Positions 3,001 through 32,400 of a stretch of DNA of 64,000 bases are shown here, one piece after another. The stretch is taken from positions 25,648,299 to 25,712,298 of the forward strand of contig NC_134025.1 in the NCBI RefSeq assembly GCF_964204645.1, read 5' to 3'. The notes beneath the pieces were generated by a model. That model was not told the origin of the DNA. It saw only the letters and a list, made by a program, of their open reading frames with translations, and searched no databases. The stretch comes from Tubulanus polymorphus (taxonomy: Eukaryota > Animalia > Nemertea). The first letter of the stretch is position 1, and each line of letters begins with the position of its first letter. Position numbers and translations under genes: made by a program.

Positions 3001-4921
3001 GAAAACATCGAATTGTCTGGCCCATATTGTTGAGACAAATAAATATACTGATTATTAATGTATGCAAAAGACTAAACAGTAGTTCCGTTCTCAGGACCCG
3101 AGAAGTGAACTTTCTAAGTAGTCATAACTGTTCAGACACTTTTAAATACACAGTTATTGGGAGCCAGTCCAAGAGGAAGCACAGGATGTCATTCGTTTCG
3201 CATTCCGAAAATTTCTATTTATTCTGTCCATAGTCTTTCGATTCTATTTTCTTCTATAACAGAATAATGTCCAATATCCGTCCTTTTTCTGTGTCACTAC
3301 GTATAACGGGTAAGACTGGATATGTTTCTTCAATACGTTCTCATCACCTGGCACTTAACTGATATTATGATCGCTATTTGTGATCAGACTTTCCTCTGCG
3401 TGAAACATTTCTTCCACGCTAGAAACATCCACAATTTTTGTGACCTAAAGTTTCTATTACTCGCCGAAAAGGCCTACCACTGCTTGTAAATTCATTGCTA
3501 TTCAAAACAACGATCATTTTTACTTTTCCCGGACCCCCAACAGCGTAACAACATTTGTATAAGTGTCGCCGCTTGTTCAAGTCCATATATGTACACGGTG
3601 TCTCACTACGCAGTGGTCAAACTGTGATTATTCATTTTTGTAGACTTTCCACCATTGTGATTAATACGATAATTGGCAACAGCTCATTGATCAAGAGCTC
3701 GATGAAATACCAGAATGATTACACAAATGGCAAACTAGAATTACATATGAAAGATATCATAAATTTCTGCAATTATTGCAATTCAGTCCAAATATTTTGG
3801 CATGAAAATTACTATCAAAATTGCACCATGAGCAGGATAGAGGCGGTAAATTTGATAGATCAAGTATTTTAGAAAGGTCAGTTAATTAATTGACTGTCAC
3901 TCTGAAATGTTATACAGCATATCCACAAGTTCAAATTCCACCAGACGTCACATCTGGCCTTAAATTCATGGCGTAAGTAATTTTGAGACTGGCAAATTCC
4001 ACGGGTTCATCCTTGAAGCAATATCAGATAGACATAAAATGAAGTTGGTTCCCAGTTTATCTTACTAAATGTCACTTCAAATGACTGATCTACCGTCAAC
4101 TGTAGAAAATTATGGCAAAATCAATCGAAGGAATTCAGAAATTTCATACAGCCAACATTCGATCAGTTTCCCAATCAACCATTGTATCAGATACATGTTT
4201 ACATGAAATTAAACGCCGATTTCACAAGCAGAAACTGGATATTACGATAAGGTGTAATTAGATGTAATAGCCACCGGCATAAACAGAAAAATACAAATTA
4301 CGTAGGTGAGAAGATCAATAGATAGCAAAAATACATCCATTTTGTACGGATGAAACCGTGCTATTTCAAAAATATCTTTCAAGGCTTTTCTTAGGGCTTA
4401 GCGATTTGATAGATTTAATGTATGTGTATCTTCCGAAAATCAATCTATGAATCAAGCAAACTATTGCATCCCCTAGGGCTGCGGCAAATCTGTCGAAATG
4501 ACATCATGAGAAAGCAATATACTTTGTGAATATAAGGTCGAGAAGGGTTTCTATTGAATTTGTGACAGTAATGCTTAAACCATCCGCGCACGGCTGGAGC
4601 ACTTTGCCATGTACCATATACAGAATGTAAGCCGAGAATATTCGGGATCTGCATTCGCATCGGAAACAATCGGCTGATCTTGCACTGGCAGGAAAATCAG
4701 AGCCTTCGTCGGAAAAAAAATTGATCGCGTTATATCGACGATTCAGCGCCCTAAATCTGGTAATTTTTGGAAACCGTCATTGCGATAGAAGCGAGATAAG
4801 CGTTGAAAGATGTGGACATTGAATACATCATCGACTCAGATGATGGAGCACCTCCATCGATTCGTCATTAAGACCTTGTTGATTTCTGGCACTTAATTTT
4901 CTATACAAATACATGCCGGTA

Positions 4922-4941
4922 CACTGTAAAAACTAAGAACG
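4922..4941 (+). repeat. Left terminal inverted repeat
   Basis: CACTGTAAAAACTAAGAACG; imperfect similarity to the right end continues inward (TGAACA-TACTGAGAACA vs TGAACACTACTTAGAACA). Confidence 0.95.
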
Positions 4942-5130
4942 CAGTGAACATACTGAGAACACTGAAATAAGGTGTTCCCGAACACTTTTTAATGAATTTG
5001 GAACATCATCGAGTGTTCTAAGCTGATTTAAGTGCAAAAGCTCGTTCTGATGAACGCTGAGAACGGCTATGGAACGGCAAGAACACACCGATCACTCCAC
5101 TAGAGCGTACGTGACTTTTCAAAGCGTTCT
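4937..5130. repeat. Left subterminal repeat region (GAACA/GAACG motifs in both orientations)
   Basis: Dense short motifs such as tgaacatactgagaacactg, ggtgttcccgaacac, gaacgctgagaacggctatggaacggcaagaacac; subterminal repeats are typical of CACTA ends. Confidence 0.8.
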
Positions 5131-6003
5131 AGCACGCTTCACTGCACCTCGCTGACTGTGGAGAATCATCTTTAGTAAGCTTTTGTATTCTTGATCTTAT
5201 AATATTAATCGGCATTCATTGGAAGTAATTATGTCAGATCATGTAGGCCTAAACAAACAGTGCATTTCACAGCCGGCGTAGGCCTAATACGCGCCACGAT
5301 GCGCCATAAATGCAATGAATGAATGCGGCAGAAAATCTTTTGGCGGAGGCCTCCACCATAACTGCGAGCTAAGTGAAGCCACATTTTTTCAGACAATTAT
5401 TAGCGGCCGCTGCCTTGTGAATTAAAGTTTTATACCAAAAAATATTTTCCTCGGTGACTCCGCGCTGTTAATCAGGGCAGGGATCGAACCTATGAACTAA
5501 AGCTACAATCTCGCTCAAGAAAGTGAATTTGATTGATTTGACTTTTCTCAAGGTCGTTGAGCTTAAGCTGTCTGCTAAAAACGAACAGTCGCCAAAATTC
5601 CACATTCATTGCCTTAAGAAATTATAATTCGAGGCCTTTACGGGTATGATAGTTTACATCTCTGTAGGCCTAAATAAAAAGATAAAAGCTGCGGTGCATT
5701 TTATTGGCATGATGATATACTGAAACTGTGTTATTTTTCTTTTCAGTTTCTTTGCCGTTCAGCCATGCCCATGCAACGATATATTGCATTCCAAGATATT
5801 ACTAGTTTTACGCGCATACTGGAAATTTGCTCTTATTTGAATTTTGACGTCAGCGATGAAGTGATTGATAGCCACTTTACCATATGCTTTTTTAACATAG
5901 GACAGTGCAACCTGATCCAGAATATTTGTGCCTATTATTTGATCGAATATCAAGTCATAAATACAACATTATCGTTGTAGAATCAGTACAGTAGAGAGTA
6001 AGT

Positions 6004-8535
6004 ATGGTCTATACTTGTAACTTATGTAACTTTTTTTCAATAAGCAATGATGATTTTAAAAATCACATCTTAAGAAAACATAGAAATGATCCACATTTCA
6101 AAATAACGTGTGATGCCTGTGGTGCCACCTATCATAATTATTTTTCATATCGTAGTCATTTTAAACGCCACCATGCCCATAGGGAAGAAGTTGACCATGA
6201 ACCCGATGACATAGACCTACCAGAACCGCAAAATCTCCAAATAGGCCTAAATGATGATCCTAGACCTGACTTAGGCCTGGTGGAACATGATATTCAACAA
6301 AATCAAAATGAACTCAATGTTGCAGCAGTTGACCAACTGAAAATGAGTGCTGGGCAATTCATTCTAAAAATGAGAGCTGGCCATAAAATAAGTGCAAGAG
6401 CAACCTGTGAGATGCTTGAAACAGTCAGCCAGTTTACTGAAATTGTTTCTGAGTGTACTCGTGATAATATTCTTAGATTAGTTCCTGGACTGAATGAAGA
6501 ACAAAAGAATTTGATTACTCATTACTTTGCTGAAAAACAGGATGTATTTGCTGGGCTTCAAAGTACTTATATGCAGAACAAGTTCTTTAGAGATAATTTC
6601 TCTTTGGTTGAACCTGTGGAAATAGTGTTAGGTCATTATTTCAAAAAGGTCAAGGTTAAAGGTAGATATATTTTCAAGAAAGTCCCTGCTCTTGGCTATT
6701 TTATACCATTATTAGAAACTCTTAAATCAATTTTGAGTATACCTCAAGTAAAGAATTGTGCCAATATAAGTCATGCTAGTGAAGATCAATACATGCGAGA
6801 CATGTGCGATGGTACTTATTTCAAAAACCATCCTCTGTTCAAAAAAAACCCGAATGCACTTTGCCTTCTTGCATACTGTGATGATTTCGAGCTAGCCAAT
6901 CCGATTGGAACTCATGCCAAATTGCATAAAATAATCATATTCTATGTAGTTGTATGCAACATTCCACCTGAATTACGATCAAAATTGCCAGTAATTCATC
7001 TTGTAGCTGTTACACTGAGAAAGTATATTGTTGGTCACAGGGACAGGCTTCAAAAGCTTCTTAAAAATTTTGTTGATGATCTAAACACTCTCTATGATGG
7101 GTACACATTCATCTTACCCTCCGGCATATATCGTACTAATGGGACTTTATTGGCATTCACTGGAGATACGCCTGCAGCAAATGAAATTGCTGGCTTTAAA
7201 GAAGGGGTTGGTGGAGCCAGCAAGCCTTGCAGACTTTGTGATATTCATAAGAATGACATGAATGCTATATTCTGTCCCTCTGACTGCATGATGCGAGAAG
7301 AAGTTGAACATAGAGAGAGGTGTAATTACCTGAAAGAACTTAGTAGGGCTGATAGGCTTCTAATGAGTAGTGAGTATGGGATAAATAATGATTCTGTGTT
7401 GCAAGGTATCAATGATTTCCAGATAACGAAGTGTTTTCCTATGGATGTCATGCATGTACTACTGGAAGGAATTTGCAATTATGAGACCAAATTATGTCTT
7501 CGACATATGGTATCTGATAAAAACATGAATGTTAGTGTTCTAAACAACTGCATAGCAAATTACAGCTATTCTGAACTTGAAATGAAAGATAGACCTCAAC
7601 CCATAGATAGAAAAACTCTTTTTGGTAATGGAAAACTAAATCAAACGTCTGAATCTATGCGGATATTAATGTATCATTTGCCATTCATTTTGAACGCTAT
7701 GAACATACTAGATGATAGAGATGAGTATTGGAGTAACTGGATACGTCTTCAAAAGATAACTATTCTGAGTTTATCCCCTATTATATCTGATGAAACTATT
7801 GCATTTATAGATATATTGGTTGCAGTACACAACAGAAAATTCGTAGAGATTTATCCCGATGAGAGCTATACGCCCAAATTGCACTATATGGTACATTTGG
7901 GGGATCAGATGCGAAAATATGGTCCTCTGCGCACACATTGGTGTATGCGCTTCGAAGGGAAACATGGTTTTTTCAAAAAGATGAAATGGAACAATTTTAA
8001 GAATATTGCTCTAGTTATTGCGACAAAGCACCAGCAGTGGCTTTGTCTTCAGCAACTCGGGACGGATGGGCAAAGATCCATGTGTTTCTTAAATGACGAA
8101 GATGACATAAAATTTGGGCACATAATGCATGAAGACGAAGACCATTTCAATGATATAATGACATATTTAGTACGTGAAACACATAGATTGCAGATAGGTC
8201 CTTTGATGATAAGCCCAAAGATCGTCGTACATGGTCATATTTACATGCCTGACAACATTCTCCTTTTAGAATTCGATGAAGATGAATATCCCGTATTTTG
8301 TAAGATTACTAAGATTGTAGTTGTTCAGGAAGAGAAATACTTGCTACTTGATAGGTTTTTAGTCGAGAGGTATGATTACACTCTCAATGCTTATGAGCTT
8401 CGAGAGGATCACTCTTGTAGTAGAAATAAGATCTTGTCTGTTCAGGATCTCCAATTCCCTTGGGTACTGCCCCAAAAATGCTTTGGTTATAAGAGATATG
8501 TTTTACTTTGCTATAGTCCTCTCGTAATGTTGTAA
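6004..8535 (+). CDS. EnSpm/CACTA DDE transposase (TnpD-like, 843 aa) with two N-terminal C2H2 zinc fingers
   Basis: Uninterrupted ORF. Zinc fingers CNLC...HILRKH and CDAC...HFKRHH. CMC transposase motifs YCDDFELANPIG, FTGDTPAANEIAGFKE, KPCRLC, DVMHVLLEG, PKLHYMVH, WCMRFEGKH. Confidence 0.95.
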   Translation: MVYTCNLCNFFSISNDDFKNHILRKHRNDPHFKITCDACGATYHNYFSYRSHFKRHHAHREEVDHEPDDIDLPEPQNLQIGLNDDPRPDLGLVEHDIQQNQNELNVAAVDQLKMSAGQFILKMRAGHKISARATCEMLETVSQFTEIVSECTRDNILRLVPGLNEEQKNLITHYFAEKQDVFAGLQSTYMQNKFFRDNFSLVEPVEIVLGHYFKKVKVKGRYIFKKVPALGYFIPLLETLKSILSIPQVKNCANISHASEDQYMRDMCDGTYFKNHPLFKKNPNALCLLAYCDDFELANPIGTHAKLHKIIIFYVVVCNIPPELRSKLPVIHLVAVTLRKYIVGHRDRLQKLLKNFVDDLNTLYDGYTFILPSGIYRTNGTLLAFTGDTPAANEIAGFKEGVGGASKPCRLCDIHKNDMNAIFCPSDCMMREEVEHRERCNYLKELSRADRLLMSSEYGINNDSVLQGINDFQITKCFPMDVMHVLLEGICNYETKLCLRHMVSDKNMNVSVLNNCIANYSYSELEMKDRPQPIDRKTLFGNGKLNQTSESMRILMYHLPFILNAMNILDDRDEYWSNWIRLQKITILSLSPIISDETIAFIDILVAVHNRKFVEIYPDESYTPKLHYMVHLGDQMRKYGPLRTHWCMRFEGKHGFFKKMKWNNFKNIALVIATKHQQWLCLQQLGTDGQRSMCFLNDEDDIKFGHIMHEDEDHFNDIMTYLVRETHRLQIGPLMISPKIVVHGHIYMPDNILLLEFDEDEYPVFCKITKIVVVQEEKYLLLDRFLVERYDYTLNAYELREDHSCSRNKILSVQDLQFPWVLPQKCFGYKRYVLLCYSPLVML

Positions 8536-8603
8536 ACTGCTGTTGTTTTTATAGATTTTATAGAAGGCTAGGTCACTGGATGTGGTGTGTCTGTCAGAAA
8601 CTA

Positions 8604-8764
8604 CAGTGGAACCTCGTTACTTCATGAGACCAGAAAATATGTTCATTATAACTGATATATTTTGAATCCAGTATGAAAAATTATAGGAGGTCAAATTATC
8701 CCATTTTGAACAGTTTGTAATAACCGATAAATCGTTATATCTGATGTTATAACGAGGTTCCATG
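8604..8764. mobile_element. pogo/Tigger-type (Tc1/mariner superfamily) MITE, 161 bp, nested between the two transposon genes
   Basis: TA|CAGTGGAACCTCGTTA ... TAACGAGGTTCCA-TG|TA: TIR with a 1-nt deletion and TA duplication. Confidence 0.8.
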
Positions 8765-8896
8765 TATATCCAACTATCTGACTACTCCTTTAATGCTAGA
8801 ATTTTTGTGGAAATATTTCTTATTGCTTAGGTAAACTGTCCGTTTGAAAAAGCAAGGTTTTCAATCTCACACTGACAGTGTCAGCTTTATTAAAAT

Positions 8897-9251
8897 ATGT
8901 GTTCGGTCGACAACAAAACCACACTTCATCGGTGCATAAATTCAGCAGGAAACAAAGTTTTCTTGATCGCGTCATCACTAAAAATGTTAAAAGATAAAGG
9001 TATGTAAGTCGATATTTGGTATTATGTAGTTCAAGTTCAAGTTCATGTAAATATACTGGTTTATTTAATCTTGTATAACAATATTTTTGGTTGTTTAGCT
9101 ACGAAATGGTTATCTTCAAGTGAAGATGATCCACCGTCAGTGTACACCAGCGATGGAACTGAGATCTTCGACGAAGAGGTGTTTGAGGTGATTTCACAAA
9201 CTGATACGACTCTCCTCATATTAAAGTCTGGTGAAACTCTGATCAATTATG
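8897..9251 (+). CDS. ORF2 exons 1-2 encoding a CIDE-N (CAD/DFF-type ubiquitin-like) domain candidate
   Basis: Spliced peptide MCSVDNKTTLHRCINSAGNKVFLIASSLKMLKDKATKWLSSSEDDPPSVYTSDGTEIFDEEVFEVISQTDTTLLILKSGETL matches the CIDE-N pattern A.SL.EL..KA...L ... DGTE(V/I).DE.(Y/F)F ... T.L..L..G. Confidence 0.7.
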
Positions 9252-12200
9252 GTGAGTATATAGGCGTATATATTCTTAGAAATGGTGAATCATCAAATTA
9301 TCGTAGTTGTTTTAACTAATTATAATTCAATTATAACTTTTATTAGACGTCCATAAGAGTACTCTTCAACCTGATTTATCTTCGTCAACTGATACTGACA
9401 TCAGCTCAGAAAGGTCTGATTTCATTGATTCGGAGGAATCGGCATCAATTGTGAGTATATCTTTTATATACTATCAATTATAACAGGGTTCCTACAGCCC
9501 CTCAAATCCCTCGAATAACCCTCAAATTTAGAATTGGTCATGTAGCAAGCCTGTAAAATCCAATATTTAAAGGAATTACCAAAACTAAGCGCTGATGTGG
9601 TGGATAAGCTATCAGCCTCTGCATCAGCTGCTGCCGCCGTTTGGGATGAATGTGTGACTCAAATGGCATACGGTTTACTCAAGAGACCCGAGGGAATCTC
9701 GACATCAAGACAATATACAGAGGCATGCCAAGAACTCATAAAAAGATATCCCAATTTGGCCAGAATCTCAGCTGGTAAAGTTACAAAGCCTTGGGTAAGT
9801 AATCATTATATGATATTATAATTACATTATATTATATTATAACCTTTAACTATTTGCATATTAATCTAAAACTTGGAATTTCAATGAAAAGTGATAGTTC
9901 ATATCTCAAGTTGGATTCATCGAAGCAAAATCCTGAAATGTTTTTAAGGAAAAAGACTAAATACCGGTATATATGTTATAATTTTTAGCCCACTTGGCCG
10001 AAGGCCATTCGGTTAGTCCCTGTGGTTGGTTGCACAGTTTTGATTTAAGTCCAAAAGTTGTCTTAAATTTTAGAAGTGATCTTAGGTTGTTAGATTGGCT
10101 ATAGAACTTAGTTGGTCTTAAGTCTAAGCCGTGACTATGCAACCGGCCCTGGGTCTTAGTGTGGTCTGGCGTGCGTGTGTCATATTTCTTGTGAACGCTC
10201 TACAGACCACAGTTTTTGGCCAATCGGCTTTAAATTCACATATATTGTGTATGACCAAAACATCTCGGAGGAGTTTTATATTTGTATTAATTGGATCCAA
10301 GATGGCTGATTGGCGGCCATCTTGGTTTCTGAAATGTGAAATGAAATGGTCTATCATATGACCAAACAAGGTCATCATATCATCCAATATGGCCGCCTGG
10401 TGACCATCTTGGTTTCTGAAAATGCACAATTTTGATATTACCTGATATAATATTCCATGTAGATCTTTCATATTTCATATGAGAATGTGAAATAGAAGGG
10501 TCTATCATATGACCAAACTAGGTCTTCTTAGCACCTGTCCTATTGTGCTTAGATTTTGTTTGATTAAGGTGGCTTTTAAGAAATCGTTAAGTATGAAAGT
10601 GAGACACATTCGGCACTACAGAAAGAAGAGAGATAATACGTCAGCTAGCAGTAGTTACAGGAAGGCAGTTAAGGTTTCAGGTAATTTTATGAAATAATAG
10701 TTTAGTCGTACATGTATGTATTATTAATGAAATATGGTATGATATTAAAACAGATGAATCTGTTTTAGCTTGCCGTGGTTTGAGTCGGGAGTCTCCGTCG
10801 TCGCCTGTTGGTGGTTTAGACGAAGACCGGAGTTCTTTCACAGCTGTTAAAGCGTCAGGTATTTATAAAATGAATAGTTCGTTGTTGTTCCTGATAAAAT
10901 TCCAATCAAATTACCGCATCTAATTAGATGAGTCTCTTTTAGGTCGTTGTGGTTTGAGTCGGGAGTCTCCGTCACCTGTTGGTTTTTTAAACGAAGGCTG
11001 GAGTTCTTGCGAAGCTGTTAAAGCATCAGGTAGTTATAAAATGAATAGTTCGTTGTTGTTCCTGATAAAATTCCAATCAAATTACCGCATCTAATTAGAT
11101 GAGTCTCTTTTAGGTCGTTGTGGTTTGAGTCGGGAGTCTCGGTCACCTATTGTTTTTTTAAACGAAGACTGGAGTTCTTGCGAAGCTCTTAAATCGTCAG
11201 GTATTTATAAAATGAATAGTTCGTTGTTGTTCCTGATAAAATTCCAATCAAATTACCGCATCTAATTAGATGTGTCTCTTTTAGGTCGTTGTGGTTTGAG
11301 TCGGGAGTCTCCGTCACCTGTTGGTTTTTTAAACGAAGGCTGGAGTTCTTGCGAAGCTGTTAAAGCATCAGGTAGTTATAAAATGAATAGTTCGTTGTTG
11401 TTCCTGATAAAATTCCAATCCAATTACCGCATCTAATTAGATGAGTCTCTTTTAGCTTGCCGTGGTTTGAGTCAGAAGTCTCCGTCACCTGTTGGTTTTT
11501 TAAACGAAGACTGGAGTTCTTGCGAAGCTGTTAAAGCGTCGGGTAGTTATCTGAAATAATGGTTTAGTTGTATATATGATTGACGAAATTCTATTCAGAT
11601 TATGGTATGATATTAAAACAGACGAGTCTCTTTTAGTTTGCGGTGCTTTGAGTCAGGAGTCTCCGTCGCCCGTTGGTGTTTTAGCTGAAGACCTGAGTCC
11701 TTCTGAAGTCTCAAATAGTGGTAAGAATGATTCCAAAGTATATGAAATGTATTAATGTGAATTGAGTTCAGATGCCTCTTTTCTTTAATCTCTTAGACCA
11801 AGCTGACCTTGCTATGTTAGGAGAAAAGCGATTGTTGGACCGACCAAAGATATTCAAACTGATGAAGGCCACACTAGCGCAGCGTCGACAGGAAATAAGA
11901 AATTCAGGCGATATACTTTTCTTCATGCAAAAGTATAAATTTTTTCAACATTTAGATTATGTGAGTGCAAATATCTTTGATTTTGAAATTTCCACATCAA
12001 ATAAGATTTATTTGGTTGTAAAGTTTGTTTTGGATATTTTTAGATTTTCGAGGAATTTCATTTGATGGGATATGCAAGGGACTTTCTACATAATTTTTCT
12101 CAGAGATATGAATCAATGTTAGAAAAGTTAGCCACTTTGGCTATGATGAATGGAGATATTAGCGTAAGTCGCCTAGCCCGATTGATGTTGATTTTTTAAA

Positions 12201-13390
12201 TTACGAAGTACACTTTGAAGAGTTCTGCTTGGATAATGTAATCCTGCTATTTTCATCTGTAAGCTTCAACATTTTGTCCATGTTTCAACACATGGCTAAA
12301 TCTATATAGCTGCGTTCACACGACAACTAGTTAGACCGGTCTAAATCGGTCCGCACTGGGCCCACAGGATGTCGCCATGAGTATTTTACCCCAAAATTTA
12401 TGTAAATGATCATAGATTTATGATTCCCTGGCAGTTTTTTATTTGAACAATTTTGACGCAGTGTACCATATATCTGGACACATCAACCTATAATAGATTC
12501 TAGGTATTTTCCAGAACAATTTATAGGGATATCTATTCAACTATCAACATACGCTGAGATTTTAAGATAAATAATAATCCGTTAGCGTACACATTAATTT
12601 TAGGTAGTAAAGAAATTATATGAAATCTTAAAACTATATTAATAGGCTTGATAAGTAATTGCTGACGATACAATTGAATTGATATTGCAGAGTACGATTT
12701 AGACCGGCTCCTAGTACCAGTTTCTCTCCACGGCACACACACAGATTTAGTTCTGTCCTAATTTAGACCCATCTTAATAATGTCGTCTAAACGCGCCTAT
12801 ACAGTATATGTATTCTAAACCTACGTATTTATCATTCTAGGAGGATCAGCATCAGATTGCTTTGATTGAGTTTGTACACAAGGAAACAAGCTACAATTAT
12901 TCACGTTGTATAATTTCCGTTGTTGACGTAAGTTCATTTGCCTAAGCTTGAGCTAATTATGAAAATATCTGGTACTTAAAATATTTCTGGTATTTAAAAC
13001 ATTTCTCTGACTTGAATTTAAGGATAGTCAAAATCTCATACAATGTTTTTATGGTTACAGTATTGGTATTTTTAGGAAGTGGACTTTGGAAAGACCAGCA
13101 ATTCAGAAAATTCAGCATTCCCAAGTATTGTTGTGGTTGGTGATGGGGTATCGTATGCGCAATATTTTCTTTCTATCGGAACAGTGCTTATCGATTGTAC
13201 CACCTACAAAGATCTATCCGGAATCAAGTTAGCATTACTGGCAACACTGGTATTGTACTACATTTTTGACCTGAACTATCCGAGACCTTTCAAGGAGTCC
13301 CTATCATTCTTTCAGGCAGTTCTATTTCAAGAAAATTGTCGTAAAGGCAATAGAACGGCCAAATTATTCAGCCATTTTACATGTAGTTAA
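8897..13390 (+). CDS. Transposon second gene (TnpA-analogous, SAMD3-like) with N-terminal CIDE-N-like domain; 15 coding exons, about 633 aa
   Basis: Hand-spliced exons, all GT-AG and phase-compatible with no stops: 8897-8999, 9099-9251, 9347-9450, 9573-9794 (alternative in-frame acceptor 9546), 10569-10680, 10769-10858, 10943-11029, 11114-11200, 11285-11371, 11456-11542, 11637-11720, 11797-11960, 12044-12163, 12841-12927, 13076-13390; total 1902 nt. Motifs resembling SAMD3-like proteins: ACQELIKRYPNL, WVAFKKSLSMKVRHIR, LMKATLAQRRQEI, IFEEF, LYYIFDLNYP...FFQAVLF. Confidence 0.85.
9982..10520 (+). mobile_element. Helentron/DINE-1-like non-autonomous repeat fragment in ORF2 intron 4
   Basis: Starts TTTTTAGCCCAC followed by hairpin TGGCCGAAGGCCA; has cttgtgaacgctctacag, repeated palindromes ccaagatggc...gccatcttgg and a duplicated tctatcatatgaccaaac. 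Boundaries approximate; family call is from resemblance only. Confidence 0.5.
10681..11720 (+). repeat. Tandem exon-intron array, 171-bp core unit (87-bp exon + 84-bp intron), six exon copies
   Basis: Exon starts at 10769, 10943, 11114, 11285, 11456 and 11637; each encodes about (A/G)xxGLSRESPSPVGFLNExWSSCEAVKAS and keeps its AG/GT sites. Confidence 0.93.
12309..12797. mobile_element. Degenerate TIR element (MITE) in ORF2 intron 13
   Basis: Ends GCTGCGTTCACACGACA and revcomp GGCGCGTTTAGACGACA (13/17 identical); TATA on both sides; subterminal ttagaccgg motifs near both ends. Confidence 0.6.
13076..13390 (+). CDS. ORF2 terminal exon, SAMD3-like C-terminal domain
   Basis: Acceptor tttttag at 13075; PSIVVVG...LLATLVLYYIFDLNYPRPFKESLSFFQAVLF; TAA at 13388-13390. 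Confidence 0.8.
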   Translation, partial: EVDFGKTSNSENSAFPSIVVVGDGVSYAQYFLSIGTVLIDCTTYKDLSGIKLALLATLVLYYIFDLNYPRPFKESLSFFQAVLFQENCRKGNRTAKLFSHFTCS

Positions 13391-13443
13391 ATAATACATG
13401 TAGTTGAATTCCTGGAAAATCCAGCCTTGGTAAACTAATGAGT

Positions 13444-13685
13444 AGTTTGAGTAAAAATACAATATTAGAATTGAAATCTGACAGTGAGATTTAAAAGATC
13501 AGTTTGGTGGAGCAGATTTTGTGGCCTTTTAAAGTGAGAAGGGTCAGTGTGATTCTACGAGGCATTCATTAATTCATTCATCCTGACCCTACTCACTTTA
13601 AAAGGCCACAACATTTGCTCCACTTAGGCGATCTTTAATTTCAGGGTCAAATTTCATCTTCAATAATAATTTTTCACTAAAACTG
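13444..13685. repeat. Long imperfect inverted repeat (arms about 100 bp, loop about 35 bp) downstream of the ORF2 stop
   Basis: gtggagcagattttgtggccttttaaagtgagaagggtcag pairs with ctgaccctactcactttaaaaggccacaacatttgctccac; weaker pairing extends outward. Confidence 0.85.
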
Positions 13686-13727
13686 TATGCTATAAAACTA
13701 CATTTCTGTATAGGCGGTAACTGTTAG

Positions 13728-13844
13728 GAATTTCATTTCAGGGGATATGTAAGGGATTTTCTAAGTGATTTTTCTCAAAGATATGAATCAATGATTGAAA
13801 AGTTAGCCACTTTGGCTTGGATGAGTGAAGATATTATCATTTAG
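13728..13844 (+). other. Diverged duplicate of ORF2 exon 13 (pseudo-exon or alternative terminal exon)
   Basis: Encodes EFHFRGYVRDFLSDFSQRYESMIEKLATLAWMSEDIII* versus exon 13 EFHLMGYARDFLHNFSQRYESMLEKLATLAMMNGDIS; preceded by ctgttag; AATAAA at 13875. Confidence 0.8.
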
Positions 13845-13970
13845 ATGAACTAGAAAATGCGCATTCAGAAAAGAAATAAACCTGGAAAATCGGCAGAATT
13901 TTGAATTTGCTTGAACTATATATGCTCTTCTTTGATTGTGTTTTTATTTCACGCTTAAGGCTGAACTGTT

Positions 13971-14348
13971 CAGATATATTATATTATGTTTTTTAGTGAT
14001 GCAGACTGAGATGGTCAGATATATATTTTACCATGTGAATGACATGTACTAATGCAGCTATTAAAAGGCAGCATTCTCTTAAAAAGAGCGTGTATGTATT
14101 TGATTTACGCTTATTGTGGCCAAATACATTGGTTAAGGATTTTGATTCAATGGAGTTTGTGCACAAAGAAACCAGATACATTTTATTATGTTTTTTAGTG
14201 ATGCTGACTGAGATAGTCAGATATATATTTTACCATGTGAATGACATGTGCTAATGCAGCTATTAAAAGGCAGCATTCTCTTAAAAAGAGCGTGTATGTA
14301 TTTGATTTACGCTTATTGTGGCCAAATACATTGGTTAAGAATTTTGAT
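13971..14348. repeat. Direct tandem duplication, 202-bp period, about 1.9 copies
   Basis: Near-identical copies starting cagata at 13971 and 14173; explains the twin ORFs at 14039 and 14241. Confidence 0.92.
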
Positions 14349-14450
14349 ACTTCCTTTTTGACAATTTTAATTCAAAATAATAAAATTTTGGATTTCAAGA
14401 TTAATCTCATCTTTTTGGTTTTTCTGCCGGGAATGTGTTGAGTTTTGCAA

Positions 14451-14642
14451 TGTTCCCTCAGGTGTTCCGGAGTTCTACAAGTGTGTTCCCAAAAGGTGTT
14501 CTTGCAGTGTTCCCACTGGTGTTCCAGAGTTCTAAGAGTATGTTCCCAAAAGGAGTTCTCGTAATGTTCCCACAAGTGTTCCATGATTTAAGTGTTCCAA
14601 AACTCTACTCAACTGAAAATGTTCTAAGTAGTGTTCAAGATA
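14451..14642. repeat. Right subterminal repeat region: about 15 co-oriented GTTC(C/T) motifs, partly in a 57-bp tandem unit
   Basis: Units start at 14451, 14508 and 14565 (tgttccc...ggtgttcc.gagttcta....tgttcccaaaagg.gttct). Confidence 0.85.
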
Positions 14643-14662
14643 CGTTCTTAGTTTTTACAGTG
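14643..14662 (-). repeat. Right terminal inverted repeat
   Basis: CGTTCTTAGTTTTTACAGTG is the exact reverse complement of the left TIR and is followed by TA. Confidence 0.95.
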
Positions 14663-17600
14663 TACTCGTACAACGAGTTGAGTAAATACGAGGAAAAAAT
14701 GTATCCCGACGCGAAACACGCCCGGTGTGTACTCGTTCGGCGCGATTATCATCATCAACAAGTACTTCAATGATATATCATCATGTGACAAATCGCTATT
14801 ACGTTTCATTTACAACCGATCCCTTGGTCGTTAGATTTGTAACGCGTTCGTCTTCCGGCGACAGAGTGTGTAAGAACTTACATCCAGACATCGATCGCCA
14901 ATTGACTTTTCAGCAGTTGGCAACCACGTCACATTTCACTCCCGGATGTGGATGGTCGCAAGGATGCGTCGCTGCCAATTATAACCGATAAATCAAGTTA
15001 CGGAAATCAAATGGCGGCTAGATTTTCGGGTTTATCGTTTGAAGCCATCAGAACGTGTTAAATGCTAATGCGAGCGGTAAAACCGTTTTAAAGAGGAGCG
15101 ATAAAGAGGATGGCCCATTTTTTCTATCGGTTTAAAGTAAACCTCATCAATAATTCAGTATTCTGCGAATAAACAGGATACGTGTCATATTCCATAGACA
15201 CCTTGTGATTTAGTAGTTTATGACAAGCTTTCATTGGAAATGTATAAGATCTACTGACTAATTACCAACAGCACTTCTTCTGTTGAAAGATTCTCTCTTC
15301 AGTACATTAAAAACTTCAACGTTCCTTATCAATATTTTCATTACTCTTGACTAGTTGAAAATAAACCATGAATTTCACACTCTTTGTGCGGCTGAAGTCT
15401 TTGGAAAAATTGACTTACAATATCTTAGAACTGACAGATTTTCTGTCGTTCAAACAAACACAATGCCTCTCGTCTCCCAATTCGCCCGATAAGGTCGACA
15501 CTCGCTATTCAGAGAGAAAAATGTACAAATACACAGATGAAGATGCTTTTTTCTTACAGCAAACAAAACAACCACTCGCGGTAAGAAAAAATATATCTGT
15601 GATGCATAAATAACAACTCAAAGATCCAGTAAAACTAGATTCCAACGAGTCGGCAAACACTGTTGTTGCCAATAAGTTGGCCGCCATGTTTAATTACTGG
15701 TAGGAAAAATCCGTGTGGTGAATTTCATCAATAGAGGAAAGGATGAAAAGCTACAAGACGTGACTGATTGAATGGAAAGGTCTTGGGGGACTTAGTAATC
15801 ATAGAACTGATCAATTACACTTTTCCTGCAAGAACACAACCTTGAACTTGCAGTACATATTAGAGACCTATAAAAGTAGCACCTCTTCTAACGCCATCAA
15901 AGGAGCAATATTCCCGTCCATAACATTGCAAAGAACTCCTTGAGAATACCCGGTGGTCTGATTAGTAAGTCCCGAGTCCCATTAACAGCTCAGGTCTGGT
16001 TTCACTATTTTCTCAGCTACCCGACGCGATGGTTGATTTTAATGTTACGTTTGGGCAAGCCCTGCTTAAATATTCAATTACGAAGGAATCTATATCGGCC
16101 AAGTATGTTTGTAAATTACATGAATAAGTTATAACTTACACATCAAAAAGTCAGGTATTATACCACCGAAGCAGTAATCAATATGGACTTGCGGAATGGT
16201 GACAAAACATTCAAATGTGTTGCAGCATGCTCTATAAGCAGCTTTCGAATCCTTATACATCTAACCATGATGCATATTTCATGTTGCTCACAATCAATTA
16301 CCACCAAGTTAACTCACAAAGGGGAGTTCAGGTTTAATTACACACGTAACTCACAGACGAATGGTTCAGGTGTGGCTACATAACAACCGAATTGCTGTCA
16401 ACTTAACTTTATGATTGGCTTTTTCGAATCATCAGCCATTCAATTTCAATTTTCAATAGCCATAGCACTGTACTGCAGTACTACAGTACTACAGTACTAA
16501 TACAGACGGCTTATCATAACATTATACATTCTTGTTTGCAGAAATATCATGAACGATAAAATCCCAAGCACATAGTATTTGCGTAGATGTCCTCTTCTAT
16601 TTTGCGCACAATGGACAGCAGTTATCGCGATAAACCCAAATAAAAAGCCATCACTGGAATTTATTTCACTTTCAATCATTCATCACAATCAAACAAGTGA
16701 CAATACACAGACAAAGCCTGAAGCCTATTCTAAAACAAACTACGATATTCATTGCAGATCGGTGCCAGAATATAGACAAGTTACGTTTCTAATAGAAACG
16801 GCATGCATACCACGTTCTCATCATCACCGGTTTTTGACAGTGTTGAATTTAACGTTGTTTTCCTAAACCTGCAATCTCATGTTTACTGAGTATATAATAT
16901 AAATACATACAAATATGGCTGTCGACTGCGCTGGATACATTATACAGAATCCAACCGCTTTATATCAAAATTGTCAGTCAACACACGTCCCTTAATTAAA
17001 TACTTATTCGATTAGAAGACAACGTAGATATATGACAGATATTATGGTTAATCACAATACTTTTAATGCAAACTACTAATGCATAAATGTTTGCATAGTT
17101 TATACATCAGCACTTGATAGTTTTATGCTCAGGATTATATTTGCTCACCAATTTCATTTGAAAGTACAGATAAATATCGCATCAAGTATATTCAAGTGGA
17201 AATACACATTGCATGTTCTGCTAACCAGACAACCAGACATACATAAGCCAACAACGAATATAAATAAATCCATCATTATCGTCATATCATTTTGCATTGG
17301 AAAATCAATTCCTTTCACTTTTCATAACTAATACAAATACTAACCCGAGGGTGAAGTATTTATTACTAAGAAGGAAACTTTAAAAAAGACATGTTATTCC
17401 AGTAACATTACTGCTTACAGAAGGATCGCTTCAGTTGTAACTAAGCATAGTTGTAAAGTCATTATCCATGAGCTACTTAAGTATCTTATTTTTCCAAATA
17501 TGTAACTTTTATGAGTTGGTAGTTTGATGATGTTATAAAGGGGTTCACGAGGCAGCCATCTTTTTCTAGATCTACGGTTTTCTTGAAGCACCTTTAGTCT

Positions 17601-26817: not shown

Positions 26818-28628
26818 AACAACTATGGTGTTCTTAAATAAACTTGAACGTGACTCAGGATTCAACATAGCAACACATACACGTAGTAATCAACGTTAGT
26901 TCATTACACCATGTTCAATTAATGGAATCCCAACAGTACAGATGCGCGCATTTAATCCATTCCAATTTGTCGTTACCATGATGCTTATCTTTACTAGACC
27001 AGCTCCATGAGTAGCATCTGCTCGTGTCAATTGGTTGACATCGTCACATCTCGTTTCTACCATTTTGAATCGAAAAAAAGACTAATATGAATAGTTAAAA
27101 ACATCATTATCAGTCGAACTTTGAGAAGAAAATTAACTACCGGTAGAACTAAAAGCACTAGAGCAAAATCACTGATTATTCCATTTATCTGAGCTACAGG
27201 GACTTCTAAAGCTATTATACCCATAACATTTTGGATAATGACATTAGTGTACAACTCTCAAAGGCATATCAAGTAACCAAATTATCACCAACAACATTAA
27301 ATGAAGCGGGAGGTCTGGTCGATTCTATCAAGGTTTTAGTCTAAGACAAGATTGTCCGATATAATGCTGATGGGAGACTGACCAGTTAACGGACTCTTGA
27401 TACATTTATAGATAACTATCAGGAAAATAAACAACTGGTTAAAGCAGATCTCATAAAAGGCAGTCGGAAGAGATTATCATGACAAAGTAAAAATCAATTC
27501 AGTTTTTACAAAATGACCACATGCCTTACGTAAACTCCGGACGTTCAACATCAACAATGAGATTTTACAGTCCATGAAATTGAGTCAACGAAATGTCATG
27601 CTGTAATTTCTGCGTTATTTTTGTGCCCTGTGCAATGTTATCATAACTTGTGGAGAAATTTAACTAAACTGAAACTGAAACTGTATAAAAACCAAATCAT
27701 CAAGTTATCTAGAAATATCAGTTGAATGTCGTTGACGAAAGACAGCTAACCTTAACAATAGTGGTAGGGATTGAAATTTAAGTTCATCTACCAATGATTC
27801 TCTTAATGAGAAATACCAAACATTCATAGGTTTGTAATTGTAACTGACCAAAGTGTAAACGTATGTATCTTGGAGTCTCAAATGTTTTCGATGAAGGCAT
27901 AGATCAAATCATGAAGTGGTTCTCTTGCTTCCACATATTCAGTACCACGCGTTATATACAAGAAATCAATGTGTCACAAACCGTCGTTCCGCGAAAGACT
28001 GCGGTAGAATCTGAGCGTACAACGTCTTAGTTATCAGATAATCCAACAGATTGAAAGCCAATTTTTTTATGATCGCGTCCATAGATTTCCTCGAGAATCA
28101 ATTTATGATGGAAGCAGCGAATGTAACATAGTACATTATATATAAATATGTAGAAAAGTTCTCATTAGATTCTTGAGAGAACTATAATCAGAATGATTAG
28201 GAGAGGTTAGTTATATTTGACATTTACTGTAGATGGTAATGTGTCACGTCATTCTTTCGTCACTTGTGCAGAATGTAGGATATTATACGTCGAACCTGTA
28301 ATACTAACACCTTTCTATCGTTGAAAAAAGAGATAATAGCTTCTACCATCAGCTTTGCGGGAGACGCTATATTCCTGCATATCATATGATCATATATATT
28401 ATCATGCCCATCAGCAAAGTACATGTTTTCGAAAACCCGACGGCATTCATAATGTACGATATAAACCAGTTGAGGTAGAGCGTCTCGTGTGTCTGTTACC
28501 CGAGAACATGTTTCATTTCAGAACGGTTCTTGCGAGGGTTTTGAGGTATCATCATTATCAAGTCTAAATACATAAGCCGGAAAAAAGCCGACGAATTAAT
28601 GTTTTAATACGAAGACATCTCGTCTTAC

Positions 28629-29418
28629 CTTTTTCACAAGCCTCTCCGGTGTAAGCAGTCAACGAACAATCGCAGATGAATCGATTCCAACCTTCTGCGC
28701 AGACACCCTTATTTTTGCAGGTCTTACTCTGACATTGGGGTTCCATGGATCGGCAGTATTCGACGACCGCGTTGACATTTTGTTGCCGAGCGTGCAAAGC
28801 TAGATCGACCTTGTCCCCGTTTATTACTAAATCTTCGATACATCCTACGTAGCCGTTTTTCAGGACGGCTGCCCAAACGGAATGCGGGATGGTGTATGCC
28901 TCACTTTTATCATCGACACCTCCGACGAACATATAACCACCTAAATCTAAACGATCATTGTTTCCTTTTGTGCGATAGATGACCTCATCGCCGTCTACCA
29001 AAACGGTACCACGTCTTCCTGAATGGCTCAGATGAATGTGATGGGACATGCCGTTGTTAACGATGCCCTTACTAGCCTTCACTTTAACCGTCCCCGAACC
29101 CAAATCTAAGATAACGAACAGATACCCGTCCAAAATCTCCATGGCGAAAAAATCGGACAAACTTTCGGCACCGCTATTGTACATGAGGAGGCAATTTGGT
29201 TCGTTCGTACGGAAGCGGAACTCGATGGTGCCCGAGTAGGATGCTTCCCAGGGTGTGAGTTTGATATATGATTCAGGGGTAGTGAATGTTATCGGTTGAG
29301 CTATAATCTGCTCGACACACGTATTGAATTGAATATCGCCGTGGGTTTGGATGAGATCATGTTTTTTCTCAGCGAGCATCGTTATGTCAAACTGCAAACT
29401 ATCAGCAGTGTACATCAC
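28629..29418 (-). CDS. NRXN: Alpha-neurexin exon: end of LNS2, whole LNS3 and EGF2
   Basis: 790-nt exon VMYTADS...QPITFTTPESY...FRFRTNEPNCLLM...DFFAMEILDGYLFVILDLGSG...GYVGCIEDLVING...CKNKGVCAEGWNRFICDCSLTAYTGEACEK; acceptor at 29420-29419, donor gtaaga. Confidence 0.97.
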
Positions 29419-32400
29419 CTGCAAGTATATACATATAAAGAACATGTTAGAAATATATTTGGGAAGAAGCAATAAATATTTCTGAAAGCGGTGCATAAAT
29501 ATTGACCAAATACTACTTGAAACAGAGACCACAGATCAATATGTTCATATGATTTCAATGTTGCCCCACCCTGTCGAATAGACGAAATGATTGAAATGAT
29601 GATAGATATGCACTGTAAACATTTTCTAGGCTTTCAAAAATGAAACAAATTTAAATTGATTCGGTTCATCAATCAGTTACTGGATACTTCTTCGAACAGC
29701 ACGACACAATAAATCAATCCCCAGCGGAATCGCGGTCTTTCTGCCAATTCATTCGCTGTTCTTATTTCGTCACAGTAATTAATGTTGTAACGTACTCATT
29801 GACAACAATGATAAACTTTTCTCTGTTAGATTATTCACGATTCAAAAACTATTCCATCAAATTCCACGCGATCATACATCATCTTACGCAGGCCACGATC
29901 GTGAATGAAAATTTCCCACAAGAGCCGAGCCTGCTCGGAGAAACCTTCAATCCATTCATTCATACTGGAATTTGCATTTAATTTTACTGATGACGTCATC
30001 AATGATAGATCATCTTTCCCGGTATTAGAACTGCATACGTTATTATTTAGATCTATCAAAAAAAGTACGGATTGCTAGTGGCAATCAAAACCCTTGCTTT
30101 ACCATCTAAACGATAGACTAGGAAATGAAAGGAAGGCGACACGCTCTGGATGCTGATGATAAATTTCTAAATCTAATTGAACATCGTCTAACTGACAGGT
30201 GTAAAGCATACTTTCCTAAAAAGGAAGATGTTATGTTTTTAAACCCGTGATTTATTTAGCACCAGGAAATGAGACCGTAATTCTCTACGGCCATTCGTCG
30301 ACAAAACAACACATGGTAATGTCTGATTAATGCCTGTCTGGTCGACATCTGTCTTCTAGATGACATGGCGATTTCCTCAAGATTTCTAAATGGTTTCCTC
30401 CGCAGCATCGGACTGAGAAATCCCATAAGGAAACGTGGTTTCATTAGGGAATTTTGCTCGAAAATTGGGTAGTAGATGTACTTGTTGCCCGCGCGCACTT
30501 CTTCACTGAGATGAAGAGTTGACCACTTCAACGTTCATTACGCGTCTAGCAAACTGCTCATGGTCGTTGTAAGTCACTATTCGTTATTGAATCTTTATGA
30601 TATCGACCATATACCAGCTGACCCAGACTACGATCATGACCATGCTAAGTGGAATTTGGTACCGAAATTAATTTCTGCATAAATAAAATATTGATGCGGT
30701 CACGCACTCAATAAAAGCTAACTAATCTTTCCGTTGCGAACACTCCTCTTGAGCCCAATTTTCATGTAGTCGATCAGTGTTTTTTTTATTTTTCGCTATC
30801 ATGTCATAAACATGACTCTCTTCGTGTCTTCTCCGTGATTAGATATATATTGGCGATGGAACAGCAAACTTCCATGTGGAACGAAAAGCATGGAACTTGC
30901 AAGTAAACATCTATACCGCATAAGCCCTTAAGATAGATAGATATATCAGTATTTCAAAACTCAATATCTTGATTATTTCATGCTTCGGGATACATATCTG
31001 ATTGATAAAAGGAAAAAGCACGATTGATCGAAAGTATACATAATGTAATTATGGATAAAAAGAGGCAGACAGACAATACATACACCACCAGGTTTTCATA
31101 TAAATTAGCTCAACTACATTAATAGATCGCACAGATGCAACGATCCTATCGATCCTAAAGGGTGAATAAAACCTCATCTGAGAGTATATCTCTTAGAATA
31201 AACGTCACTAAACATGTGTACGCAATAACCCTTTAGAAAAGTGTGAGGTAAATACTGATTGGAAATATCGTAATCCGGGATCCAGTTCCACGGTCCAGTC
31301 CTACTCGAAATCTAAGACTGAATAGTATTGGTTTGCTAAATATCTTTATGTACCAATGAGTTTAGTCTTAACTGTGAACAAGGCCGCTTATTCTTTCCCA
31401 TTTTCCCTGTGCAATCATAAACACCTGAGAATATCTTTTTGTATCCCTCTCAGGATACATCTGAAAAAAATCCTACGCAACATATATGCATTTAACATGA
31501 AAAATATGGATTTCGGAGATGCACACAATGTCAGGTTTGACATGCAGGAAAGGTCTGTTGTTCTATTCAATAAGAACCAATTATCATTTCATTATCATAA
31601 TACGTATGTATACAGCTATTATGGCATCGATACAACAGGAATGCGATGCTTTGTGCCTTGATTTTCCGCCTCGAAATCAATAAATGAATAATGCCCAAAC
31701 CATGTCATCCCTGCTTCCAAAATACAATAAATCCTTCAATTTCGGAGCCTGTCATGTTGGTGATCGATTGCGTGTCTCTGACCAAACGCTGCAATTATAG
31801 CAGGCTGTAGCGGACTATATATTATGGCAAGAATCCTAGCAAAAATAATAGTCACTTGCCTCAGTCAATGCACCACACTATAAAACCTTATTGCACATTA
31901 CTCCTTCTCCCTCCAGTTTAAATTCTATGAATTATCAATGAATTATTGTTGTCATTAAAAGTATTCTCTGAGTATGCCTAGCAGCAAACAAGTTTTTTTC
32001 ATGTCAGCATCTAGAAAATAAAAACCCAATAACACTCGATACTGGCAATGAAACGGATTTCCCCTTTAATCTAAATTATAAGATTATCAATCAATAAAAA
32101 ATTTTTATAAAGGATTACCATCCGATTTAATTTGAAATGATCAACTTCAACAATTTGAATCAATTCATTTCGAGGTGTGCTATGTTATAGTATGTAAAAT
32201 ATGATGGCAATATTAGTGATCATTAAAATGTAATGTAAATATGTATGCATCTAATATAGACAGCTTTCAATATATCTTGTTCATAACTACCTGTTCAGAG
32301 ATTTATGCTCAAACAACGAAATCATTATAAACCCCCTATGTAAACTTCGCATCGATACACTTGTACATTTTTTGTTTGTTAACCAAAACAATGATTACCT

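Follow-up and report, generated by a model that had tools for sequence, protein, structure and literature searches.

Some CACTA transposons of plants carry more than a transposase gene. Maize En/Spm and Arabidopsis Spm have CACT-type ends with clustered subterminal motifs, and encode a transposase (TnpD) together with a second spliced protein (TnpA) (10.64898/2026.08.24.746577). Reports of TnpA-like proteins are confined to flowering plants, and the repeat-binding domain of animal Spm elements is described as lying typically on the transposase (10.64898/2026.08.24.746577). Among animal elements, ENS1_Cis of Ciona savignyi has CAC...GTG termini and a 2-bp target duplication (PMC6004678). For animal CACTA elements, no function of the second gene is known from the open-access papers covered.

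CIDE-N is the N-terminal domain of DFF45/ICAD, DFF40/CAD, Drosophila DREP1–4 and vertebrate CIDEA/B/C, in which it bears a DGT motif and an acidic face. Opposite charges join CIDE-N domains head to tail into filaments, and mutating K132 and D167 of DREP3 disturbed or abolished the filament (PMC8647176); in DREP2, the K13D mutation abolishes the oligomer (PMC6292858). SAM, too, belongs to the small number of folds that are known to build head-to-tail polymers (PMC7614096). A precedent for CIDE-N in selfish genetic elements is given by the betabaculovirus CIDE_N genes, MyunGV#8 ORF38 and its relatives, which encode short stand-alone viral proteins of 91–185 aa (PMC5245865). The main text of the preprint on plant and animal Spm elements contains no CIDE, SAM or PB1, and its supplements may list such domains (10.64898/2026.08.24.746577). 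None of the open-access texts covered was found to describe a CACTA element with a CIDE-N, SAM or SAMD3-like gene. PF02017 is already marked automatically on the proteins described below in databases. Here we describe an animal CACTA element whose second gene encodes a 638-aa helper protein that begins with a divergent CIDE-N domain.

A multi-copy CACTA element with two genes

The window analysed is a stretch of 64,000 nucleotides (nt) from the genome of the ribbon worm Tubulanus polymorphus. It holds an intact, multi-copy animal CACTA transposon of 9,741 bp (4922–14662), bounded by a 20-bp terminal inverted repeat with a CACTG end, the left copy (4922–4941, + strand) being the perfect complement of the right copy (14643–14662, − strand). 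A TA dinucleotide stands ahead of CACTG (4920–4921) and past CAGTG (14663–14664; both unstranded), from which flanks of the occupied site a 2-bp target-site duplication is presumed; a complete related element (L057) has the same TA flanks. Just inside the ends lie seven GAACA/TGTTC repeats on the left (4946–5085, +) and 12 TGTTC repeats, partly in a 57-bp tandem unit, on the right (14451–14636, +), which gives 7 and 12 copies in the first and last 300 bases against 0.76 per 300 bases window-wide. Contigs of run X1, one of four runs (X1–X4) from one study, break at 4922 and 14662, the two ends of the element, and the RefSeq models (11 cluster members plus P0001) are assigned to at least six gene ids, spread over several contigs. 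The locus combines the CACTG inverted repeats, TA flanks, subterminal repeats and dispersed copies expected of CACTA/EnSpm elements, and judged by its ends, 2-bp duplication and transposase it belongs with the animal CACTA/CMC elements (PMC6004678). It shares CACT-type ends, clustered subterminal motifs and a transposase accompanied by a second spliced protein with En/Spm, from which it differs in its CACTG ends and 2-bp TA duplication. With ENS1_Cis it shares termini and target duplication; the window element has a 15-exon second gene with CIDE-N, and the passage on ENS1_Cis is silent on a second gene (PMC6004678).

The first gene, ORF1 (6004–8535, +), is an open frame for a single-exon CACTA/EnSpm-type transposase of 843 aa with two N-terminal C2H2-like fingers. 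Its Pfam matches are weak, comprising DUF4218 (E 0.0066) and weak C2H2 fingers. We found 33 relatives at E < 1e-10; the four that were scanned all match Transposase_21 or Plavaka, one of them above the cut-off. Acidic columns are invariant in the transposase alignment, the window protein's own family match being only that to DUF4218. The transposase profile found no relative among viral contigs. Upstream of ORF1, a probable 5′ non-coding intron with consensus splice sites (GTAAG...TTTCAG; 5175–5746, +) is flanked by run X4 contigs of which some end at 5174 and others begin at 5747, the joint itself being deduced from these flanks.

ORF2 is a spliced gene of 15 exons

The second gene, ORF2, consists of 15 exons that encode 638 aa, and its translation is identical to the RefSeq Tubulanus polymorphus protein P0003. 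Exon 1 (8897–8999, +, phase-1 donor) encodes the predicted strands 1 and 2 of the CIDE-N domain along with the greater part of helix 1, the basic face, and exon 2 (9099–9251, +, phase-1 donor) encodes the second half of the domain with the acidic face SDGTEIFDEE; the 99-bp GT–AG intron between them (9000–9098, +) lies within the domain. Exon 3 (9347–9450, +; joints 9250/9346 and 9450/9573) encodes a Ser/Asp-rich linker, and exons 4 (9573–9794) and 5 (10569–10680) encode a conserved helical middle domain (9573–10680, +). Exons 6–11 (10769–11720, +; joints 10678/10767, 11198/11283 and 11369/11454) form six tandem 171-bp intron-plus-exon units (10752–11720), all in phase 1, that encode Ser/Pro/Cys-rich repeats of about 29 aa each. 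The C-terminal SAMD3-like body and the stop codon are encoded by exons 12–15 (11797–13390, +), located by joints and by identity to P0003 at 11797–11960, 12044–12163, 12841–12927 and 13076–13390.

The sequence-only reading had spliced 8999 to 9099, fused the resulting domain in frame to the downstream body and placed the gene between the inverted repeats of a CACTA element, and each of these claims was borne out. The ATG at 8897, the donor GT at 9000 and the acceptor AG at 9097–9098 stand where it had put them; an X4 contig omits exactly the 99 bases 9000–9098 (GT..AG) and extends across exons 3 and 4, joining exons 1 and 2 to downstream ORF2 exons; the 15-exon frame is intact and its 638 aa equal P0003; and the perfect 20-bp repeat encloses both genes. 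Contigs of X4 skip at least 11 of the 14 ORF2 introns at GT..AG ends, 8999/9099 included, and another joint goes to an alternative acceptor. X4 joints fixed the exon 4 acceptor, and repeat position fixed those of five repeat exons. Contigs of runs X1, X2 and X3 showed no ORF2 splice joints, and those of X2 and X3, which share a sample code with X4, contain the 9000–9098 intron unspliced; a further run, X5, contributed no contig. Because of its 11 GT..AG joints we infer that X4, which is not on record as RNA, is cDNA and that ORF2 is transcribed. A 3,960-base X4 contig starts at 5747, crosses the transposase and reaches into ORF2 exons 1–4, a contig being no proof of one transcript.

Alternative forms were noted at both ends of the gene. 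RefSeq models of other copies (P0002, P0006, P0008–P0010 and P0012) join 6004–6661 to 8949 onward, a transposase-finger/CIDE-N form that drops strand 1 with R12 and has both of its splice sites in the window; it is absent from the X4 and X3 contigs, and contigs drop rare forms. A possible splice acceptor stands at 8829–8830, 66 bases ahead of the ORF2 start codon and with no intervening ATG. A transcript that joined the 5′ exon to this acceptor would leave the transposase out, as happens in maize Spm; use of the acceptor was not seen in the run contigs. Beyond the ORF2 stop, 13726–13836 is a partial duplicate of exon 13 into which some RefSeq models splice, and 13971–14348 carries a 202-bp tandem duplication.

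The N-terminal domain is a divergent CIDE-N

The CIDE-N signature that had been read from the spliced exons 8897–8999 and 9099–9251 held in profile and database searches. Pfam matched the spliced N terminus (RefSeq P0001) to CIDE-N (PF02017) at 34.7 bits (E 1.9e-8, cut-off 23.5) over profile positions 14–74 of 76; the full 638-aa protein scored 31.7 bits and the exon 2 frame alone 20.6 bits. PB1, against which the identification was to be checked, was not listed for the spliced N terminus at E up to 5; the sole other family at that threshold was KHA (E 0.065). A single-sequence search of PDB sequences gave four matches at E up to 10, all of them to CIDE-N chains and weak (E 0.29–0.77), and with a four-sequence profile the top 6 of 18 matches were CIDE-N, with SRP54 noise beneath. 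Of the CIDE-N alpha/beta roll, which runs strands 1–2, helix 1, strand 3, helix 2, strand 4, a shallow model of the domain gave strands at 9–14 and 20–25 and a helix at 28–40 with pLDDT 65–69, the remainder lying below 50; the lengths of these modelled elements match those of DREP3, at the low confidence of the model. Three fold searches gave no significant match, with CIDE-N chains only in the noise. Both AlphaFold models, at a mean pLDDT of 37.9 and 45.3, were too poor for a fold match to be demonstrated.

Residue comparison showed how far the interaction faces are kept. R12 aligns with DREP2 K13, K20 with R22, and D53, T55 and E61 with D56, T58 and E64, and V21, I14, F58 and V62 stand in place of DREP2 K23, W15, E61 and Y65; in our own mapping by spacing, V21 corresponds to DREP3 K132 and F58 to DREP3 D167. 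The acidic patch had been called clear, and D53, E56, D59 and E61 of the EDGT signature and acidic face are indeed retained in SDGTEIFDEE, though Ser replaces the first Glu and one key acid is lost at F58. The judgement that the basic patch is weak stood in part: set against DREP2 K13, R22 and K23 and DREP3 K122, K132, K145 and K149, the window domain departs at V21, where the conserved second lysine is lost, and at W38 (with K37 adjacent), but R12, K20 and K34 are kept and match interface positions. The domain is identical in the two full-length protein copies compared, whose five residue differences all fall within the repeat region. By profile and residue comparison, the N-terminal domain is a genuine but divergent CIDE-N with an interface that is only partly canonical, and the reported observation of a CIDE-N-bearing helper in a CACTA element is confirmed.

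Like the DFF/CIDE proteins, ORF2 has an N-terminal CIDE-N with a DGT motif and an acidic face; it keeps part of their basic face and has one phase-1 intron inside the domain and another after it. Unlike them, it is encoded by a mobile element, lacks DFF-C, nuclease and CIDE-C regions, has SDGT in place of EDGT, and carries V21 and F58 at positions that are charged in the interface. The phases of its two introns equal those of the first two introns of vertebrate Dffa, phases alone having been compared (PMC2426694). Since the inner Dffa intron is treated as a chordate gain (PMC2426694), the match may be due to chance.

The ORF2 body and middle domain

In the 638-aa protein Pfam found only CIDE-N, with no DFF-C, nuclease, CIDE-C or SAM; SAM profiles found no SAM in the stretch 4001–15500 of the window, nor did Pfam in P0003. 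ORF2 differs from TnpA in having no Pfam match except CIDE-N. We take its body to be SAMD3-like, a label that comes from an Atlas row of that name at 0.83 and is a lead only. The whole protein resembles, at 0.95, an Atlas cluster of 224 mostly arthropod proteins of which 21% have CIDE-N, and the body alone gave 0.81 for the CIDE-N cluster and 0.83 for the SAM cluster, again as leads only. The body also resembles the SAM-bearing second genes of related elements. Unlike SAMD3, ORF2 has CIDE-N instead of SAM and six added Ser/Pro-rich repeat exons. Protein searches with exon 2 or the C-terminal region returned only the element's own proteins; the extra matches P0013 (SprB-repeat) and P0014 look like repeat-protein noise.

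The middle domain (exons 4–5) ends in a Lys/Arg-rich helix that is conserved in the window and six aligned relatives, and a homologous stretch adjoins the transposase in many loci. It has no Pfam or PDB family match, and there was no profile match in it to the two tandem three-helix HTH motifs of TnpA, its structure model being poor. A suspected resemblance to the BEN domain received no support from Pfam or PDB searches. We regard the middle domain as the candidate DNA-binding part of ORF2. A different arrangement, which we consider unlikely but not negligible, would have the transposase bind the end repeats and ORF2 act elsewhere through CIDE-N as a self-association or partner module; it might, for instance, be a cofactor of the transposase, or a scaffold in chromatin or against silencing. 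The N-terminal C2H2-like fingers of the transposase fit this arrangement, as do the usual location of the DNA-binding domain on animal transposases (10.64898/2026.08.24.746577) and the lack of a DNA-binding family match in the middle domain. The Lys/Arg-rich helix shared by the window and the six relatives argues the other way, as does the variation of end motifs by family (GAACA here, TGTTTAG in L057); such variation leads one to expect that some element-encoded protein reads the motifs, without specifying which one.

CIDE-N occupies a slot that holds SAM in relatives

A 27-sequence transposase alignment was used to collect the best 80 of 511 metagenome-contig relatives and 21 genome-bin loci, which together with the window made a survey set of 102 sequences (the window plus 101 related loci), searched with profiles that were seeded by eye and iterated. 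Loci L081–L101 are animal-type CACTA elements inside prokaryote genome bins and are likely to be host DNA. The ORF2 middle or C-terminal region was found in 53 of the 102 sequences, with the C-terminal motif of ORF2 common to related loci, and a SAM piece in 47, of which 38 also had the ORF2 body. By these profiles, CIDE-N occupies the N-terminal slot of ORF2 that holds SAM in many relatives.

A CIDE-N first exon was detected in 5/102 sequences (the window, L005, L029, L065 and L081), and no sequence of the 102 had SAM and CIDE-N together. The search for CIDE-N beside EnSpm transposases added four loci to the one first noticed, although their contigs end before the body, so that only the neighbourhood of exon and transposase is seen in them. 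In all four the exon starts 60–567 bases past the transposase stop and shares the window's AG|GT phase-1 donor; the contigs end 98–484 bases beyond that donor, before exon 2 and the body, and these short flanks weaken the apparent exclusion of SAM. Pfam placed L029 above the CIDE-N cut-off of 23.5 (28.3 bits) and L005 just under it (23.2 bits), and gave no CIDE-N match for the exons of L065 and L081 alone. When the others served as the profile, each of the four came up at E < 1e-6 among 32,526 frames; the window's exon 1 is far more divergent, and the profile of the four recovered it at E 9.2 only. All five transposon copies of CIDE-N keep K20, K32 and K34 unchanged.

Pfam SAM scored above its cut-off in 3 of 24 SAM exon frames (L074, L090 and L093) and more weakly in eight others, most of the frames being half domains. 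The transposase sits between two SAM exons in L057, L073 and L074, and the position of the transposase within an intron of the second gene in several relatives is a likeness to En/Spm. L057:3–7826 is a complete SAM-type element with 22-bp CACTG ends, TA flanks and the transposase in the SAM-splitting intron; its subterminal motif, TGTTTAG, is unlike the GAACA of the window. A third kind of module, Cys-rich and about 45 aa long, stands directly before the transposase in a clade of eight tree rows (modules at L008:1069–1239, L010:1739–1969, L012:2193–2417, L017:3211–3375, L021:576–731 and L043:3110–3271). Pfam gave nothing noteworthy for it, and no SAM or CIDE-N was detected in the eight rows of this clade; the slot is therefore not reserved for known polymer folds.

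The survey also bears on whether ORF2 is a host cargo gene, or the element one that inserted around a host CIDE-N gene. The gene is rich in introns and CIDE-N is otherwise known from host genes, as such an origin would predict, but the same body stands beside related transposases in 53/102 sequences, frequently enclosing the transposase, and the Tubulanus polymorphus genome has several loci at which near-identical copies are annotated. These observations largely refute the cargo reading, to which we assign only a very slight probability.

Distribution of CIDE-N and SAM on the transposase tree

A tree was built from the 79 of the 102 sequences with a transposase frame of at least 450 aa, merged at 90% identity into 58 rows, of which 29 carry SAM, 5 carry CIDE-N and 24 had neither detected. 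The five CIDE-N rows occupy three positions about a base that is poorly resolved. On the best tree CIDE-N takes four changes, a number as low in 57 of 500 shuffles, and a single CIDE-N origin was neither demonstrated nor rejected (AU p 0.18). SAM is also present in the distant group found at the midpoint root; outside the tree, it lies next to distant transposases that are fragmented. This occurrence in distant groups suggests that SAM is the older occupant and that CIDE-N replaced it, on a tree with a midpoint root and no true root.

The window element has a long terminal branch, which would fit a CIDE-N that is a decaying relic, captured long ago and now drifting, at most a folded spacer. 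The hydrophobic residues at two mutationally tested interface positions (V21 and F58) and the divergence of exon 1, far greater than that of its four counterparts, would be expected of such a relic. We nevertheless consider decay doubtful: the domain still scores above the Pfam cut-off, R12, K20, K32 and K34 and four of five acidic positions are kept, and the domain is identical in two full-length copies, a weaker point given that the copies are young.

A proposed role in self-assembly

Exchange of two unrelated head-to-tail folds, SAM and CIDE-N, in one slot would make self-assembly the most economical role for both. Not every SAM domain polymerises. We consider self-assembly the probable role of the ORF2 domain, and the sequence-only proposal that the domain polymerises gains independent comparative support from SAM in the same slot of relatives. 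In that proposal the polymer would run along the GTTC arrays and synapse the ends, and a preprint puts the domain that binds the repeats of animal Spm elements typically on the transposase (10.64898/2026.08.24.746577).

The same proposal had offered, as a second option, a decoy for the host apoptotic nuclease. The domain would then bind the CIDE-N of host DFF40/CAD or DFF45/ICAD and damp or recruit the nuclease during cutting. CIDE-N does pair heterotypically, the basic patch of DFF40 with the acidic patch of DFF45 (PMC6292858), some betabaculoviruses carry stand-alone CIDE-N genes (PMC5245865), and in the window domain the acidic face is better kept than the basic one. Yet a decoy leaves the SAM in the slot of most relatives unexplained, the protein has neither DFF-C nor a nuclease domain, and the four other transposon copies have preserved their basic face well. 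We find a decoy role weaker than self-assembly, and improbable.

Self-assembly could be part of a longer sequence of events. A host DFF-type CIDE-N module would have been captured by a CACTA lineage and would have replaced SAM, both domains serving self-assembly of basic face to acidic face. The resulting helper chain would make the basic helical middle domain multivalent, allowing it to coat the clustered GAACA repeats at both element ends, and the coated ends might help the transposase to hold the ends together, or might keep the element expressed, as TnpA of plants does with an unrelated fold. We hold this full model, from capture and SAM replacement to a self-assembled helper on the end repeats, to be plausible though slightly short of probable; V21 and F58 at tested interface positions, I14 and V62 in place of W15 and Y65, and the divergent exon 1 count against it, as do the Cys-rich clade, the lack of a DNA-binding family match in the middle domain and the reported location of the repeat-binding domain on animal transposases.

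More tentatively, the animal CACTA helper may polymerise through its exchanged SAM or CIDE-N domain, the latter captured from apoptotic DNA-fragmentation genes, with paired charge-to-hydrophobic changes (V21 and F58) forming in this family a private interface that avoids the host nuclease. If so, the helper would assemble into a filament or a condensate at the ends of its own element, and the origin of the SAMD3 family, together with surplus CIDE-N genes in transposon-rich genomes such as that of Hydra, would be explained. In Hydra, CIDE-N genes are over-represented (10 and 7, versus 1–3 in five other cnidarians), an excess that the cited text does not tie to transposons (PMC7642931). A domain of the apoptosis pathway that spreads by transposition also matters for how many 'cell-death' genes are counted in invertebrates' genomes. 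The exchange of unrelated self-assembly folds in a single slot is a natural experiment that points to function, and since point mutants of CIDE-N that break filaments are known, the self-assembly idea is directly testable.

Other features of the window

Short inverted-repeat or high-copy pieces, probably small non-autonomous elements, are nested in ORF2 introns and between genes (8607–8762, about 10060–10150, about 12305–12800 and 13494–13636). Outside the element, 28567–29535 (− strand) is a Laminin G and EGF-like coding frame of a host gene.
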